64,000 nucleotides of DNA from Enterobacteria phage ATK47. Positions 42,297-48,740 of the stretch are shown here, piece after piece (the stretch's first letter is position 1; each line of letters begins with the position of its first letter). The stretch lies in sequence record NC_055708.1, one strand, 5' to 3'. The notes under the pieces are model-generated. The model was not told the origin of the DNA and searched no databases. It saw only the letters and a program-made list of their open reading frames with translations. A program made the translations under genes and the position numbers.

Positions 42297-42308
42297 ACTG
42301 AGGAAATT

Positions 42309-42923
42309 ATGTTTAAAGTTAATACTTTTTATAAAATGAATTTTAAAAATGGGGATATTACTCCACGCCTTAAAAACATGTTCTCATATGACCTTATCGA
42401 GCCTTTTGAAGTTTTAGAAGTTACTGATGCCGGCTCAGTTTGTGAAATTAGAACTTCTGAAGGTAAAATTTATCAGGCAGGTGTTGGTAAATTCAGTAAT
42501 TGTTTTACTTTAATATTCTCGACCGATTTAGATGAGCATTTTATTGAATGTCCTAACCCTAAGGTCCATGAAGTTCCATGGAAAGAAACTAAGAAAAATG
42601 GACCGCATGAATACACGAAGGTTGAAACTCCTCACGGCGATATGTGGCGTCATAACTCTCCTTTTGGAAGTAAAGGAACATTTGCTCAACTGCCTAAACC
42701 GTATGACGATGAAAAATACATCGTCGCCTTTTTATCTGAACAGGGTACTCAAGACCGTGGATGCCAAAGAAGTGGTTTACTAAGTGAACTTGAAGCTCAT
42801 AACCAAGCACGTGAATTCGTTGAGAAAAATCCTGGTTCTGAAGCTCTAGTCATGAAAGCAGTTACTCAATATATCACTGCTCAACCTATTGTTCATCCGG
42901 TAGAAATTAATTTCATTAAGTAG
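42309..42923 (+). CDS. Hypothetical protein
   Basis: 204-aa ORF, RBS gagga. Confidence 0.5.
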   Translation: MFKVNTFYKMNFKNGDITPRLKNMFSYDLIEPFEVLEVTDAGSVCEIRTSEGKIYQAGVGKFSNCFTLIFSTDLDEHFIECPNPKVHEVPWKETKKNGPHEYTKVETPHGDMWRHNSPFGSKGTFAQLPKPYDDEKYIVAFLSEQGTQDRGCQRSGLLSELEAHNQAREFVEKNPGSEALVMKAVTQYITAQPIVHPVEINFIK

Positions 42924-42953
42924 TTTACATCCAAGGACGGATTAGAGTATAAT
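42923..42953 (+). promoter_or_regulatory. T4-type early promoter
   Basis: GTTTAC 42923-42928, TATAAT 42948-42953 (spacer about 19). Confidence 0.45.
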
Positions 42954-42977
42954 GATTTCTTTAGTAAGTGGAAAAAT

Positions 42978-43175
42978 ATGAAATTTTTAATAGCACAAAC
43001 AGTCCAATTAAAAGGTGTTGGAATTCCTGGGGTGATTTTTAAAGTTCTCCCTGAATTTAAAACCGCCGCTGGAATTATCAATGAAGCGTATGCTGTTCAA
43101 TGGGTTGATTGGACTTCTGACATACGTATGGGTAAAGAGTTATCTCCTATTAAAGGGTTGAAACATGTTGAATAA
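42978..43175 (+). CDS. Hypothetical protein
   Basis: 65-aa ORF. Confidence 0.4.
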   Translation: MKFLIAQTVQLKGVGIPGVIFKVLPEFKTAAGIINEAYAVQWVDWTSDIRMGKELSPIKGLKHVE

Positions 43176-43377
43176 ATTAATCCAGAAATTGTTAGGTACA
43201 GAAATGATCGAAGTTACTTATCGTGTAACTGACTGCTCGCCTATTCATCCACAGGATGAACCATTTATCAAGACAATTAAAATGCTTAAAAATGACGGTG
43301 GTTTATCTATTGAAGACCGTCTGCCTAGTTACGGCCATTGGGCTGATGTTGAAATTATAAGTGTTAAAGATGTCTGA
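43165..43377 (+). CDS. Hypothetical protein
   Basis: 70-aa ORF. Confidence 0.4.
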   Translation: MLNKLIQKLLGTEMIEVTYRVTDCSPIHPQDEPFIKTIKMLKNDGGLSIEDRLPSYGHWADVEIISVKDV

Positions 43378-43828
43378 ATTAGAAATAAGAAGTAATTTCA
43401 AGTGGCCGTCATGTGCATTAAGTAACTTTGCTCAATGGCCTTTTGTTATGGATGGTATTCAATTCGGAGGTCTTGAAGGATTTCTCCAAGGATGTAAGGT
43501 GAAAAATGTTGAACAACAAAGACGTATATTTGGGTTGTCTGGATTGGCTGCACAGCAAGCTGGAAGGTCTTATGCAAGAGCTCAGGACCGTGGAACTCTC
43601 TTCTGGTTAGGAGTTCCGTTTTCAAGATACTCCGAAGCGTGGAAAGAATTATACACAAATGCATATTTTGAAGCCGCGATCCAAAATAAGGGGTTTCGTG
43701 ATGCCTTACAAGCCTCTAAAGGAAAAATTTTGAAGCACAGCATGGCTAGCCACCTAACAAAAGATGATACAATACTAACTGAAGCTGAATTTATTGATGT
43801 GTTAAACCTATTAAGAGACTCTTTATGA
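43361..43828 (+). CDS. NADAR-like (YbiA/DUF1768 family) protein
   Basis: 155 aa; ALSNFAQWPFVMDG closely matches the SNFAAWP...DG core of E. coli YbiA / NADAR domain (recalled). Confidence 0.5.
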   Translation: MLKMSELEIRSNFKWPSCALSNFAQWPFVMDGIQFGGLEGFLQGCKVKNVEQQRRIFGLSGLAAQQAGRSYARAQDRGTLFWLGVPFSRYSEAWKELYTNAYFEAAIQNKGFRDALQASKGKILKHSMASHLTKDDTILTEAEFIDVLNLLRDSL

Positions 43829-44640
43829 AGCCTACTATTTTGACTGATATTGATGGTGTATGTTTAAGTTGGCAATCTGGACTTCCTTATTTTGCCCAAA
43901 AATATAATCTTCCATTAGAACATATTTTAAAAATGATTCAGGACGAAAAATTTATTTCTCCTGGTAAACTATTCAATACCGACGATAACCTTGGTAAACA
44001 ATTAATAGAAAAATATAATAGCTCTGATTTTATTCGTTACTTAGCGCCTTATTCAGATGCTCTTCGAGTTATCAATAAACTAAAAGAAGACTATAATTTT
44101 GTAGCCGTGACGGCGCTAGGTGATTCAATTGATGCTCGATTGAATAGACAATTTAATTTGAATGCTTTGTTCCCAGGCGCTTTCTCTGAAGTAATGATGT
44201 GTGGTCATGATTCTTCAAAGGAACAATTATTCGAACTAGCTAAAACAAAATATAACGTGATTTGTTACGTTGACGATTTAGCTCATCACTGTGACCATGC
44301 GGCAGAAATTCTTAATGTACCGATTTATTGGTTGGCTCGTGGTGAACGTGATGATATTCCTCGCACTGCACAACGTGTACACACGTGGGATGATATTGAA
44401 TCTCGATTGGTTCCGCCAGAGCATAATTCAAATTCAGATCGTGAAGACCTTTTAAAACGATTGGCCGATTTGCTTAAAGAATCTGGTGCAACAAGTCCAG
44501 GTGCATGGCCTAATCAAATTGGCGCTCCGTCGAATCCGTATACCTGGCGAACCCCAGGACCAACTGATATGCGGCCATGGTGGACGATTCAAAACTTTCC
44601 TTTAGATTCGTCTAAATGGACTTGGTCTATAAATTGTTAA
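43825..44640 (+). CDS. HAD-superfamily hydrolase-like protein
   Basis: 271 aa; N-terminal HAD motif I ILTDIDGV; ATGA overlap with upstream NADAR-like gene. Confidence 0.5.
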   Translation: MKPTILTDIDGVCLSWQSGLPYFAQKYNLPLEHILKMIQDEKFISPGKLFNTDDNLGKQLIEKYNSSDFIRYLAPYSDALRVINKLKEDYNFVAVTALGDSIDARLNRQFNLNALFPGAFSEVMMCGHDSSKEQLFELAKTKYNVICYVDDLAHHCDHAAEILNVPIYWLARGERDDIPRTAQRVHTWDDIESRLVPPEHNSNSDREDLLKRLADLLKESGATSPGAWPNQIGAPSNPYTWRTPGPTDMRPWWTIQNFPLDSSKWTWSINC

Positions 44641-44649
44641 GGGATACTT

Positions 44650-44919
44650 ATGTTTGTAGTTCATGATATTACAGATGGCAAAAACACCACACGTGACTAC
44701 GGTCACGTTAACATGTTCTTTCGAGACTGGCCATTGTTTCGTTCAGTAAAAGACGCAGAAATATTTAAAGAGTGTGTTGAACAAGGGTTCATCTACATTT
44801 CAGAATACTATGTTGAAGGACTCGGTAAATGGATTACCACTTATCAGAAAACGCTGAAATCGCTTCTAGATGAAGTGGCTTATAATAGAACCGTAACCAA
44901 AATCGAGGACATCAAATGA
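44650..44919 (+). CDS. Hypothetical protein
   Basis: 89-aa ORF coupled to ligase gene. Confidence 0.45.
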   Translation: MFVVHDITDGKNTTRDYGHVNMFFRDWPLFRSVKDAEIFKECVEQGFIYISEYYVEGLGKWITTYQKTLKSLLDEVAYNRTVTKIEDIK

Positions 44920-46409
44920 TTTTAGATATTTTAAACCAAATAGCTGCGATCGGTTCTACTAAAACAAAACAAGAAATCCTTAAGAAAAATAAGGACAACA
45001 AATTACTTGAACGTGTGTATCGTTTAACATATGCACGTGGTATCCAGTATTATATTAAGAAATGGCCAGGACCAGGTGAAAGGTCTCAAGCGTATGGTCT
45101 TCTTGAATTAGATGACATGTTGGATTTTATTGAGTTCACATTAGCCACTCGTAAACTCACTGGTAATGCTGCAATTAAAGAGCTCATGGGTTATATCGCT
45201 GACGGTAAACCTGATGATGTAGAAGTCCTTCGTCGTGTAATGATGCGAGACCTTGAAGTAGGTGCTTCAGTGTCTATCGCGAATAAGGTGTGGCCTGGAC
45301 TTATTCAATTGCAGCCACAGATGTTAGCATCTGCATATGATGAGAAATTGATTACTAAAAATATTAAATGGCCTGCATTTGTCCAATTAAAGGCAGATGG
45401 TGCTCGTTGTTTCGCTGAAGTTCGCGATGATGGCGTTCAATTCTTTTCTCGTGCCGGTAACGAATACCATGGTCTTACTCTATTAGCAGATGAACTAATG
45501 GAAATGACTAAAGAAGCTCGTGAAAGACACCCTAATGGGGTTTTAATCGACGGTGAATTAGTTTATCATTCATTTGATATTAAAAAGGCTGTGAGCTCAG
45601 GAAATGACCTGTCGTTCTTATTTGGCGATAATGAAGAATCCGAAGAAGTACAAGTTGCAGACCGTAGCACTTCAAATGGTTTAGCAAATAAATCTCTTCA
45701 AGGGACTATTTCTCCTAAAGAAGCGGAAGGTATGGTTCTTCAAGCCTGGGACTATGTTCCTTTAGATGAAGTCTACTCTGATGGCAAAATTAAAGGCCAG
45801 AAATACGATGTTCGTTTTGCTGCTCTTGAAAATATGGCTGAAGGCTTTAAGCGAATTGAGCCAATTGAAAATCAGTTAGTTCGTAATCTTGACGAAGCTA
45901 AAGTGGTTTATAAAAAATATGTTGACCAAGGTCTTGAAGGTATTATCCTTAAAAACCGTGATTCATATTGGGAAAACAAACGCTCTAAGAATCTAATTAA
46001 ATTTAAAGAAGTTATTGATATCGCTTTAGAAGTTGTAGGATACTACGAACACTCTAAAGACCCTAACAAATTAGGTGGTGTCGAACTCGTATCACGTTGT
46101 CGTCGTATTACAACCGATTGTGGTTCAGGTTTTAAAGATACAACTCATAAAACAGTTGACGGTGTAAAGGTTCTTATTCCTTTAGATGAGCGTCATGATT
46201 TAGACCGTGAACGATTAATGGCTGAAGCTCGTGAAGGTAAATTGATTGGACGTATTGCTGATTGCGAATGTAATGGTTGGGTTCATTCTAAAGGCCGTGA
46301 AGGTACTGTAGGTATTTTCCTTCCAATTATTAAAGGGTTCCGTTTTGATAAAACAGAAGCGGATTCGTTTGAAGACGTATTTGGACCGTGGTCCCAGACA
46401 GGTTTATAA
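44916..46409 (+). CDS. 30: ATP-dependent DNA ligase
   Basis: 497 aa; adenylation motif I KADGAR (active-site Lys); position before alt as in T4. Confidence 0.85.
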   Translation: MILDILNQIAAIGSTKTKQEILKKNKDNKLLERVYRLTYARGIQYYIKKWPGPGERSQAYGLLELDDMLDFIEFTLATRKLTGNAAIKELMGYIADGKPDDVEVLRRVMMRDLEVGASVSIANKVWPGLIQLQPQMLASAYDEKLITKNIKWPAFVQLKADGARCFAEVRDDGVQFFSRAGNEYHGLTLLADELMEMTKEARERHPNGVLIDGELVYHSFDIKKAVSSGNDLSFLFGDNEESEEVQVADRSTSNGLANKSLQGTISPKEAEGMVLQAWDYVPLDEVYSDGKIKGQKYDVRFAALENMAEGFKRIEPIENQLVRNLDEAKVVYKKYVDQGLEGIILKNRDSYWENKRSKNLIKFKEVIDIALEVVGYYEHSKDPNKLGGVELVSRCRRITTDCGSGFKDTTHKTVDGVKVLIPLDERHDLDRERLMAEAREGKLIGRIADCECNGWVHSKGREGTVGIFLPIIKGFRFDKTEADSFEDVFGPWSQTGL

Positions 46410-46652: not shown

Positions 46653-48740
46653 ATGTCTGAACAAATAAACGAAGTGTTTGAATCTGAAGGCAGTCTTCCT
46701 GTCGTCAATTTGAACCCTAAAGCTAAAGTTCCACAAGTCTGGAAAATTGGTGATATCGATACAAACATCGTAGTTCGCTTATTCTCTTATCTTTCTGAAG
46801 GCGATGCCGTAAAACAAGTTAAACTTGGCGACAAATACGCTCATGTTGTTATTATGAGTCTATCTGAAAAGGGTAATCTCGCTGAATTGAAAAATGGCCT
46901 TGGTCCTGCTCCTATTGATGCAATCAACACTATTTTCAATACAGTATATGAACAGGTTAAAGCTCTTCGTATGGATGCAGTTCTGTTCCGATTCCCTACC
47001 AAGAAATTGAAAGGACGTGGACAACAGCTTCAAACTCTTCTTGCTCGTTTAGTTTCTACTAAAACCGGTGGTCGTTTTAAAGTATTGTCGGCAATGTATC
47101 AATTCACAGGTAAACACACCTATGTGATGATGGTTCGTAAAAATGCCAACATTGAAGATATTAAAGGCATCCCTAACATTAACACAGAGTTGTATACGAA
47201 AGTAGATTCTGATGTTGGCGAAGTTTATGTGAGTAAAAAGACCGGCGAAAAGGTCACCAAAGAAACGGCTATCGCTGGTTCTATTGCTGCTGTAGAAGAA
47301 AAACGTAAAGATAAGCCTGTTATTGCTCGTACTAAAATTTCTCGTCGTGCTATTGCAGCAAGTCAATCTTTAGAAGCTGACCGACAAGAAGGTGAGTTAT
47401 TCCAGAAATACGAAAATTCTGCTAAAGAAGTTAGTGGCCCAGCTACGGCCGAATTACTTCCTGAAGCATATGAAATCGTACTAGCCCAAGCATCGTCCAC
47501 AGCAAAAGGCACTTTAGTTGCTGATATCGAAAATAAGATTTATAATCGTATTGATGAATCCTTTAAATTTGCCGATGAAGTTTCTTATGGTAGTGTTATT
47601 AAGCCGACTTTAGAAAAGTTTGCTAAGAAAATTAAAACTGAAAAAACAACATCTGTTAAAGCATTAGCTGCTTTTGTTGAAGCTGCAAATGAAATTGCAG
47701 ACTCTATTAAAGACGAATGGTTTGAAGATTTTAGACGTGATAATTTCCAACTGCCTGACGACGTTTTAGCTGAAGTATCTGAAAGAACTTGGAAACAACG
47801 TAAATCAGCGTTCTTGTCTAATGTGATGTATACTTATGCCCGAGAATCGGCTAGAGGCACCTTTAATATAACAATGAATCGGGACCCTAAACAATACTCT
47901 GTTGCTGAAAAACGAGCTATTCGTGAATATGCCTCTTCTGCGTATACCGATATCAATAATATGTTGTTAGGTCGTTATAAACCGGATTTTTATGATGTTG
48001 CAGATGAAGATGAAGTTAAACGCGCTATTGATGGTCTTGATTCGGCGTTTTTAAATGGAGACCGTTTACCTGAAGGACTAACGTTATATAGAGCTCAGTC
48101 TATCAGAATGCCTATTTACGAAGCAATGGTTAAAAATAAGGTATTCTACTTCAGAAACTATGTTTCCACTTCACTAGCTCCTATTATTTTCGGTGGGTTT
48201 AAAGAGAACGTTGCCCTTGGACTTGCTCCTGAAGAAGTTCGCAAAGAGCTTAACATTGACAATAATGACGAAGGTGTTACTATTTCTCCTAGTCAAGTAA
48301 GAACAGCTATGCATGCACCAGAACAAATCCGTGTTAACGTTGGATGGGCTATCGATGGCGCCCATAAAGTTAACGTGATTTATCCAGGACAGTTGAGTAA
48401 CCACCCTAATGAGCAAGAAATTATTTTGCCTAGAGGCATTCTCTTGCAGATAAATAAAATTACAGATGCGTCATCTGACACCGGTGCAGGTTTAGAATCC
48501 AACCTTAAATTTATTCAAGCTGAAGTCATGTCCTCAGACCAGTTGGATGAAGCCGTCATTTATGATGGTGATGTTCTCATGGAAACAGGCGAGGTGGTTG
48601 CTATGACGGGTGAAATCGAATCGGATGAGCCGGTATCGTTCTCCTCATTTGTAGAAAAAACTAGTGCACCTAAAGGTTTGAAATTGTTAGCATCTTTAAT
48701 GGATTTAGAATCAGTTCCGTTTAAATTTGTCCAAGGATAG
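46653..48740 (+). CDS. alt: ADP-ribosyltransferase Alt (virion-packaged)
   Basis: 695 aa; R-S-E type ART signature elements YRAQS (Arg), YVSTSL (STS), EQEIILPRG (catalytic Glu) in C-terminal half; position between 30 and 54. Confidence 0.7.
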   Translation: MSEQINEVFESEGSLPVVNLNPKAKVPQVWKIGDIDTNIVVRLFSYLSEGDAVKQVKLGDKYAHVVIMSLSEKGNLAELKNGLGPAPIDAINTIFNTVYEQVKALRMDAVLFRFPTKKLKGRGQQLQTLLARLVSTKTGGRFKVLSAMYQFTGKHTYVMMVRKNANIEDIKGIPNINTELYTKVDSDVGEVYVSKKTGEKVTKETAIAGSIAAVEEKRKDKPVIARTKISRRAIAASQSLEADRQEGELFQKYENSAKEVSGPATAELLPEAYEIVLAQASSTAKGTLVADIENKIYNRIDESFKFADEVSYGSVIKPTLEKFAKKIKTEKTTSVKALAAFVEAANEIADSIKDEWFEDFRRDNFQLPDDVLAEVSERTWKQRKSAFLSNVMYTYARESARGTFNITMNRDPKQYSVAEKRAIREYASSAYTDINNMLLGRYKPDFYDVADEDEVKRAIDGLDSAFLNGDRLPEGLTLYRAQSIRMPIYEAMVKNKVFYFRNYVSTSLAPIIFGGFKENVALGLAPEEVRKELNIDNNDEGVTISPSQVRTAMHAPEQIRVNVGWAIDGAHKVNVIYPGQLSNHPNEQEIILPRGILLQINKITDASSDTGAGLESNLKFIQAEVMSSDQLDEAVIYDGDVLMETGEVVAMTGEIESDEPVSFSSFVEKTSAPKGLKLLASLMDLESVPFKFVQG

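Follow-up and report, generated by a model that had tools for sequence, protein, structure and literature searches.

T4 gp30.3 (AdfN), a DNA ADP-ribosylglycohydrolase specific for guanine, is required for DarTG1 resistance and also sufficient for it (Johannesman et al. 2025, PMC11825919; PMC11125620). Deletion of adfN renders T4 and T2 sensitive to DarTG1, the purified T4 protein strips ADP-ribose from DNA, and AdfN is weakened by the substitutions E36A and K43A as well as by an RB69-like truncation (PMC11825919). In an independent transposon screen of T4 on DarTG1 hosts, 30.3 scored a log2FC of -7.25 with a padj of 0 (HIDEN-SEQ Data S6). RB69 itself is sensitive to DarTG1 and can be rescued by ectopic AdfN, and resistance tracks with full-length adfN alleles, among them the ones carried by Bas46 and Bas47, two relatives of RB69 (PMC11825919). 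AdfN-T4 requires a further T-even factor for full activity (PMC11825919), and presence of the gene alone is therefore no guarantee of protection.

AdfN has its NADAR core fold in common with the NADARs associated with DarG1/DarT1 (G. lovleyi, 8bat) and with E. coli YbiA (2b3w), and the Glu and Lys in contact with ADP-ribose are the same. Phage, DarG1-type, and YbiA NADARs all de-ADP-ribosylate guanine in vitro, where the specificity of AdfN for guanine was also observed (PMC11125620, PMC12945103). AdfN differs from both groups in that it has no N-terminal extension, in the residue of the last strand (His in AdfN, Asp in DarG1, Glu in YbiA), and in the failure of T4 AdfN to rescue uninfected cells from DarT1 (PMC11825919). 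Unlike the DarG1 NADARs, it is encoded by an orphan gene without a toxin partner.

Here, we analyse a locus in which an adfN gene directly precedes a gene for a HAD-type protein, 30.2. We consider it highly probable that this adfN encodes a functional anti-DarTG1 NADAR and that 30.2 encodes a separate HAD enzyme, which is its neighbor only by virtue of its position in the gene string.

The gene string upstream of DNA ligase

The window, i.e., the whole stretch of 64,000 nucleotides that was analysed, matches Enterobacteria phage ATK48 (KT184310.1), an RB69-like T-even phage (Mosigvirus), with 100% identity. The following features are relevant.

42924..42953, plus strand: sigma-70-type promoter-like site, TTTACA-18-TATAAT, 11/12 matches, from a consensus scan alone
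43165..43377, plus strand: gene 30.4, 70 aa, phrog_2042 match (E 5e-34), directly upstream of adfN
43370..43828, plus strand: adfN (gene 30.3), predicted 152-aa stand-alone NADAR-fold DNA ADP-ribosylglycohydrolase, intact allele
43825..43828, plus strand: ATGA junction of adfN and 30.2, in which the adfN TGA (43826-43828) overlaps the 30.2 ATG (43825-43827)
43825..44640, plus strand: gene 30.2, 271-aa HAD-superfamily phosphatase-like protein
44650..44919, plus strand: gene 30.1 (DUF3045), 89 aa, located between 30.2 and gene 30, Pfam PF11243 match of 92.8 bits, included in the ATK48 annotation
44916..46409, plus strand: gene 30, ATP-dependent DNA ligase, likewise included in the ATK48 annotation
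46653-48740: Alt, by annotation an ADP-ribosyltransferase acting on host RNA polymerase

Both 30.3 and 30.2 are unannotated in the ATK48 GenBank record KT184310.1. Nevertheless, they are real genes and not chance ORFs, since they match PF08010 and phrog_420, respectively, and since relatives of 30.2 occur in 1437 phage records. NCBIfam and PADLOC scans of 30.4, 30.3, 30.2, and 30.1 gave no meaningful match, and the internal ORF 30.3' of T4 is not conserved in the window, where a stop interrupts the frame after 34 codons.

The original prediction, made from the sequence, placed a NADAR-like ORF with a SNFAQWP-type core at 43361-43828. This ORF is present and carries LSNFAQWPFVMDG, as read from the sequence, but its GTG at 43361 is most likely not the start. 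Both T4 and RB69 annotate a protein that begins with MSELEIR, which argues for initiation at the ATG at 43370 and a product of 152 aa. This ATG overlaps the stop of 30.4 by 8 nt (ATGTCTGA), likewise in T4, and the position of 30.4 before adfN is identical in T4 and RB69. The overlap of the NADAR gene with a 271-aa ORF bearing HAD motif I (DIDGV) was confirmed from the sequence, as was the location of the pair upstream of DNA ligase, which follows after 30.1. The ATGA junction is preceded, at a distance of 6 nt, by a Shine-Dalgarno-like AAGAGA, and translational coupling of adfN and 30.2 is possible. The promoter-like site may provide the transcript start for 30.4-30.3-30.2-30.1-30; from this site to the end of the ligase gene, the plus strand is devoid of terminator-like sites.

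AdfN of ATK48

By sequence, the window gene is the orthologue of T4 gp30.3. Identity between the two proteins is 97% across the full 152 residues, and the Pfam model PF08010 (Phage_30_3) is matched over its full length (1-138 of 138) with 232.4 bits (E 1.8e-69), against a gathering cut-off of 36 bits. The catalytic codons and the C-terminal helix map as follows.

43475-43477, plus strand: catalytic codon E36
43496-43498, plus strand: catalytic codon K43
43736-43738, plus strand: codon of the phage-type H123
about 43781-43825, plus strand: C-terminal helix, residues 138-151, the part missing from RB69

A single-sequence search of PDB sequences with AdfN gave no match, whereas the AdfN profile matched E. 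coli YbiA across the SNF...E..Q..K motif (E 0.0015). The AF2 model (pLDDT 93.3) retrieved three NADARs as the top Foldseek matches in the PDB, YbiA (2b3w), PnNADAR (8bau), and the G. lovleyi NADAR (8bat), each with a probability of at least 0.98; the match after these has an E of 3.7, and the remainder is noise. The assignment to the NADAR family, and with it the NADAR fold, is thus borne out by profile and structure comparison. The catalytic residues of the family are present as well: E36, K43, and H123 are invariant (34 and 47 homologues). In the AF2 model, H123 is part of L-K-H-S and falls right after the last predicted strand (residues 120-122), while the literature places the phage-type histidine in this strand.

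The locus resembles that of T4 in its place in the gene string (30.4-30.3-30.2-30.1-30), in the same start/stop overlaps, in E36, K43, and H123, and in a full-length C-terminal helix. It differs in residing in a Mosigvirus instead of a Tequatrovirus and in five substitutions in AdfN (K11, E88, I119, M124, and H127 in ATK48), none of which affects a conserved position. RB69 provides the closest genomic background, and its gp30.3 is 97% identical over the shared 137 residues. In RB69, however, an extra T at position 411 of the gene shifts the frame, and the last 15 residues are lost. In the DNA alignment, this T is absent from the window, and AdfN accordingly terminates in ...EAEFIDVLNLLRDSL, the same as in T4. 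Since the catalytic residues and the C-terminal helix are kept, unlike in the frameshifted RB69 copy, the ATK48 allele is predicted to be functional, like that of T4. With the frame intact, ATK48 is therefore predicted to be DarTG1 resistant, unlike its relative RB69, and a single-base indel would decide DarTG1 sensitivity within one genus.

The proposed role against guanine ADP-ribosylation by DarT is exactly what the T4 orthologue fulfils (PMC11825919, PMC11125620). The ATK48 gene thus represents an already characterised and published enzyme, with no new mechanism. In this mechanism, host DarT1 would ADP-ribosylate guanines in the phage DNA and thereby block replication. AdfN, as a minimal NADAR-fold N-glycosidase, would cut the ribose-guanine bond, releasing ADP-ribose and restoring the base, and this repair, limited to guanine, would allow the phage to replicate in DarTG1 hosts. 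For ATK48, identities, fold, residues, and intactness rest on computation, and the enzymatic activity and anti-DarTG1 role rest on the T4 and T2 orthologues.

gp30.2, a divergent HAD protein

The 30.2 product matches phrog_420 (E 2e-78). Our literature search for gp30.2 found no paper. Its predicted organization is given below.

43825-44409, plus strand: C1-capped HAD core, residues 1-195
43846-43860, plus strand: motif I, D8xD10GV (D8-I-D10-G-V12)
44110-44112, plus strand: motif II, T96
44218-44220, plus strand: motif III, K132
44272-44277, plus strand: motif IV, D150-D151
residues 202-219: helix
44506-44637, plus strand: disordered Trp/Pro-rich tail, residues 228-271

In the AF2 model, the protein has a Rossmann-like HAD core (pLDDT above 90) with a C1 cap, made of helices and placed between motifs I and II (about residues 13-90), and a tail of pLDDT below 50. 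Among 49 homologues, D8, D10, and K132 are invariant, and T96 and D150/D151 are conserved in at least 90%. The sequence itself is poorly recognised: gp30.2 scores 16 bits against HAD_2, below the Pfam threshold of 23.8, and weak Pfam HAD matches occur in only 10-11 of the 49 family members. Judged by sequence, the family is a divergent HAD branch for which Pfam has no dedicated model. No extra domains that might have indicated informative fusions were recognised in a Pfam scan of longer relatives.

The best-fitting known enzymes are the 5'(3')-deoxyribonucleotidases cdN and mdN and the bacterial NT5C family (PF06941; 2jao, 1mh9, 3bwv), which share the C1-capped HAD fold with a core of about 195 residues. 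Foldseek matches cdN and mdN at a TM of 0.62-0.65. Moreover, in gp30.2 the DxDGV motif is followed by an aromatic residue (W16, which aligns with a Phe of cdN) and then by S-G-L, and motif IV is likewise a DD. On the other hand, gp30.2 is just 15-19% identical to these enzymes and additionally has a helix and a disordered tail of 45 residues rich in Trp and Pro. Its best PDB match in a single-sequence search is weak (cdN 2jao, E 0.18), and its profile has no significant match among PDB sequences. The window protein does not match PF06941, NT5C matches are sub-threshold in 7 of the 49 close homologues (best E 0.0029), and 2 of 10 distant relatives, with 26.7 and 32.1 bits, exceed the cut-off of 24.8. 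Membership of the NT5C family is therefore transitive at best. Taken as a whole, these features suggest that gp30.2 is a separate enzyme, namely a C1-capped HAD phosphomonoesterase that depends on Mg and is probably active. From the same similarities we infer a nucleotide substrate, and the protein most likely works as a 5'(3')-deoxyribonucleotidase-type phosphatase on nucleoside monophosphates.

The position of the gene raises the alternative that gp30.2 is a DNA-end 3'-phosphatase which prepares nicks for the adjacent DNA ligase, the two forming an end-healing and sealing pair. An analogy exists in T4 Pnkp, whose HAD phosphatase domain works with RNA ligases. This phosphatase-like protein is widespread (about 1400 phage records) and nearly always encoded just upstream of DNA ligase; a ligase gene follows 30.2, on its strand, in 72 of the 78 loci seeded with it, an arrangement for which vertical synteny may suffice. 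HAD C1 caps usually close the site to macromolecules, and Pnkp-type phosphatases are capless, whereas gp30.2 bears a helical C1 cap. In addition, its structure and sequence link it better to small-molecule phosphatases and NT5C, and the ligase is essential in T4 while 30.2 is not. We therefore regard an end-healing role as unlikely.

Adjacency of adfN and 30.2

Could the two neighboring genes nonetheless work together? The original prediction considered the NADAR and HAD proteins an anti-defense or nucleotide-salvage pair. In such a two-enzyme module, gp30.2 might process a phosphorylated product of the release by AdfN or might itself be the T-even factor that AdfN-T4 is reported to require. 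The 4-nt ATGA overlap is real and found at the 30.3/30.2 junction of T4, RB69, and every close T-even locus, the consensus promoter scan is compatible with co-transcription, and 38 of the 78 loci seeded with 30.2 have 30.3 no more than 1.3 kb upstream. Seen from 30.3, however, the association is loose. Among the 80 loci seeded with 30.3, the two genes abut in only 14, and 59 lack a copy of 30.2 within 5 kb. In several genomes the genes are about 55-60 kb apart, adjacency being limited to close T-even relatives. The overlap is not specific for 30.2 either, as the ATGA at the end of 30.3 is kept even where another gene comes next. As to the chemistry, cleavage of the pyrophosphate in ADP-ribose is not a known activity of HAD phosphatases, according to the established enzymology of the family. 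Finally, insertions in 30.2 were neutral on DarTG1 hosts in the T4 transposon screen (log2FC -0.12, p 0.61, 71 sites; HIDEN-SEQ Data S6), a measure of dispensability that pertains to T4, one DarTG1 system, and one growth condition.

The transposon data and the synteny led us to reject gp30.2 as the T-even cofactor of AdfN, and for DarTG1 the concept of a module is largely refuted; we consider it very improbable. Our comparison thus does not support adfN and 30.2 as a module. In a weaker variant, any help that gp30.2 gives to AdfN may be restricted to ADP-ribosyltransferases distinct from the DarT1 tested. We favor the reading of two separate enzymes, in which the adjacency would simply reflect that both genes are part of the dense early string 30.4-30.3-30.2-30.1-30 of T-even phages, without joint action.

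A further candidate for the T-even factor is gp30.4. In the T4 screen on DarTG1 hosts, 30.4 is the only other significant gene (log2FC -1.79, padj 0.014; HIDEN-SEQ Data S6). Confident relatives of 30.4 are confined to the T-even clade, RB69 included (161 loci searched), and AdfN-T4 works fully in RB69. Yet the gene upstream of adfM shows a similar partial depletion on DarTG2, so that polarity on the translationally coupled downstream gene is a simpler explanation for the depletion of 30.4. That 30.4, instead of 30.2, encodes the factor for full AdfN activity therefore seems doubtful.

Another reading, that the NADAR protein is a housekeeping YbiA-like N-glycosidase acting on riboflavin intermediates and not a counter-defense enzyme, draws on YbiA being the best single structural and profile match. 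It is most improbable and already contradicted by T4 genetics. The AdfN family has the phage-type His where YbiA has Glu, ADP-ribosyl-guanine is hydrolysed by the T4 orthologue, which becomes essential only on DarTG1 hosts, and in the published phylogeny the closest relatives of gp30.3 proteins are DarG1 NADARs and not YbiA (PMC11825919).

Alt had also been noted at 46653-48740, where it is indeed found, as a sign that ADP-ribose chemistry is a theme of the region. This latter notion does not hold, as the arrangement is T4-type synteny. NADARs act on guanine in nucleic acids, and Alt, by its annotation as a host RNA polymerase modifier, has a protein target. We rejected Alt as a functional partner of AdfN on this basis and also because 30.3 is located elsewhere in many T4-like genomes.

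With regard to annotation, the first gene of the pair can be named adfN with confidence in the ATK48 record. Most T-even records label both 30.3 and 30.2 as "hypothetical."

The NADAR gene and its surroundings

The window shares 100% identity with Enterobacteria phage ATK48 (KT184310.1), a Mosigvirus, i.e., an RB69-like T-even phage. Read off the T4 and RB69 annotations, its gene order is 30.4-30.3-30.2-30.1-30, and an intact orthologue of a characterized counter-defense enzyme (30.3, adfN) adjoins an ordinary-looking HAD phosphatase without characterization (30.2).

Genes of the region, in window coordinates
43165-43377, + strand: gene 30.4, 70 aa, function unassigned (order from T4/RB69 annotations)
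43370-43828, + strand: adfN (30.3), 152 aa (Pfam PF08010; T4 gp30.3 identity)
43825-44640, + strand: 30.2, 271 aa, HAD (ORF; phrog_420)
44650-44919: 30.1 (DUF3045), after 30.2
44916-46409, + strand: gene 30, ATP-dependent DNA ligase
46653-48740: Alt, after DNA ligase

In the ATK48 GenBank record, 30.3 and 30.2 are unannotated. No gene is annotated there between 30.7 and 30.1 (window about 42300-44640, KT184310.1 140531-142883), so that adfN, 30.2, 30.4, and their neighbors are absent from the deposited annotation. Direct reading of the sequence recovered both ORFs of the original prediction, including the 271-aa one and the stop/start overlap, in which the adfN TGA (ORF end 43828) overlaps the 30.2 ATG at 43825. 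The first ORF had been placed at 43361-43828; its end stands, whereas its start is most likely the ATG at 43370 (protein beginning MSELEIR), the GTG at 43361 being less favored. With this start, adfN overlaps the end of 30.4 by 8 nt, as it does in T4. T4 also carries an annotated 75-aa internal ORF, 30.3', in the +1 frame inside adfN (window 43506-43610, + strand). In the window, this frame reaches a stop after 34 codons; hence, the ORF is not conserved, and 30.3' probably does not represent a genuine gene.

The NADAR assignment is well supported. The adfN product matches Pfam PF08010 (Phage_30_3) over the entire model (232 bits) and is 97% identical to T4 gp30.3, while a 34-homologue profile matched E. 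coli YbiA in the PDB (E 0.0015) over the SNF...E-x-x-x-Q-x-x-K segment. An AlphaFold2 model from 47 input sequences (pLDDT 93.3) gave exactly three credible Foldseek PDB matches, namely, YbiA 2b3w, Phytophthora NADAR 8bau, and Geobacter lovleyi NADAR 8bat, the fourth-best having an E value of 3.7. E36, K43, and H123 are invariant throughout the gp30.3 family; in the window protein, both the fold and the catalytic residues are present. A histidine in place of the usual Glu/Asp in phage NADARs has been described in three papers.

Counter-defense by AdfN and the allele in ATK48

The anti-DarT role proposed for this gene is correct but had previously been demonstrated for the T4 orthologue, which was renamed adfN by Johannesman et al. 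2025 (PMC11825919). In that study, adfN deletion prevented T4 and T2 from plaquing on hosts carrying the DarTG1 defense system, RB69 was rescued by adfN expression, E36A and K43A weakened AdfN, and the purified protein stripped ADP-ribose off DarT1-modified DNA; AdfN was ineffective against DarTG2. The T4 protein hydrolyzes guanine-ADPr but not thymine-ADPr and is not named among the enzymes that remove cytidine-ADPr (PMC11125620, PMC12945103). Likewise, an independent T4 transposon screen found 30.3 insertions strongly depleted on DarTG1 (log2FC -7.25; HIDEN-SEQ preprint, 10.1101/2025.11.20.689424).

RB69, the type Mosigvirus, is sensitive to DarTG1 because its adfN has one additional T, at gene position 411, which shortens the protein by 15 residues and removes the last helix, whereas its relatives Bas46 and Bas47, with full-length alleles, are resistant (PMC11825919). 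In a three-way DNA alignment, the T insertion is absent from the window and the 3' end of adfN is T4-like. The window protein differs from T4 AdfN at five positions (K11, E88, I119, M124, and H127), all of them variable. Given an intact end and differences confined to such positions, ATK48 is predicted to resist DarTG1. The value of the analysis lies in the annotation and in this testable prediction, with gp30.2 and gp30.4 flagged as questions for further study.

AdfN-T4 is reported to be fully active only during T-even infection, from which a further T-even factor was inferred (PMC11825919). Exactly two genes were significant in the DarTG1 transposon table, 30.3 and the upstream 30.4 (log2FC -1.79, padj 0.014). 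The simpler reading of the 30.4 depletion is polarity on a translationally coupled downstream gene, since on DarTG2 a comparable depletion (-1.73, short of significance because of low counts) is seen for vs, which lies upstream of tk.4/adfM with a 4-nt overlap; the downstream gene tk.3 is unaffected. That 30.4 is itself the factor required by AdfN-T4 would fit its being the sole significant gene besides 30.3 and the confinement of its confident relatives to the close T-even clade (local jackhmmer, 161 loci, with marginal matches at E about 5e-4 in two loci outside that clade), but the vs result makes this improbable.

Relationship between adfN and gene 30.2

The original prediction that the two genes could form a functional module does not hold: transposon genetics, co-occurrence, the junction, and the ligase as the stable neighbor of 30.2 all argue against it. 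On DarTG1, T4 insertions in 30.2 are neutral (log2FC -0.12, p 0.61, 71 sites) while those in 30.3 vanish, and 30.2 is non-essential in T4 on K-12. The 30.3 profile retrieved 80 viral loci: 30.2 abuts in 14, lies elsewhere in the flank in 7, and is missing within 5 kb in 59. Conversely, in the 78 loci that the 30.2 profile retrieved, 30.3 abuts in 20, lies within about 1.3 kb in 18, and is missing in 40. Contig ranges place the two genes ~55-60 kb apart in at least nine genomes.

More distant T4-like phages (loci L018, L039, L044, L083, and L119-L125) have one or two unrelated small genes between 30.3 and 30.2. There, the 30.3 stop still forms ATGA with the next start. As the overlap is kept where the downstream gene is unrelated to 30.2, it reflects T4-style gene packing rather than a specific partnership. 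The linkage of 30.2 to DNA ligase is much tighter than that to adfN: in 72 of 78 viral loci (L084-L161), a same-strand ligase gene follows 30.2 either immediately or after one small gene. Synteny alone could explain this, as could a functional link to ligation or to nucleotide metabolism. Nor is the nearness of Alt evidence for the suggested ADP-ribose theme; the T4 and ATK48 records list Alt as an ADP-ribosyltransferase with host RNA polymerase as its target, and its position is conserved T-even synteny.

The HAD protein gp30.2

The protein matches phrog_420, whereas a Pfam scan gave no model above threshold, and a literature search on gp30.2 found no paper. The HAD motif I noted originally is sound: D8 and D10 are invariant in 49 homologues, as is K132, and T96 and D150/D151 are nearly so, by which gp30.2 looks catalytically competent. 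In the structural model, residues 1-195 form a core of high confidence, into which a helical cap is inserted between motifs I and II; beyond the core lie a helix (202-219) and then a tail (228-271) that is disordered and rich in Trp and Pro.

Several lines, weak but consistent, favor the 5'(3')-deoxyribonucleotidases. Mouse cdN is the best PDB sequence match (DIDGVCLSWQSGL aligned with NMDGVLADFESGL); cdN and mdN give Foldseek TM values of 0.62-0.65 and the lowest rmsd values; and the match to 3bwv, a putative deoxyribonucleotidase, spans 165 of its 168 residues. Sub-threshold NT5C matches occur in 7 of the 49 homologues, and two of ten distant relatives, drawn from an exhaustive profile search (1042 representatives, E up to 0.001), pass the NT5C gathering score. 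That gp30.2 is a nucleotidase-like HAD phosphatase has, in our estimate, about an even chance.

The tail C-terminal to the HAD core (window 44506-44637, + strand) is hypervariable. Short forms of ~200 aa lack it entirely. A motif found in many other homologues, G-I-E-Y-[LW]-x-x-Q-P-T, does not occur in the window protein. TWRTPG is the sole tail motif common to the T4 and RB69-like proteins.
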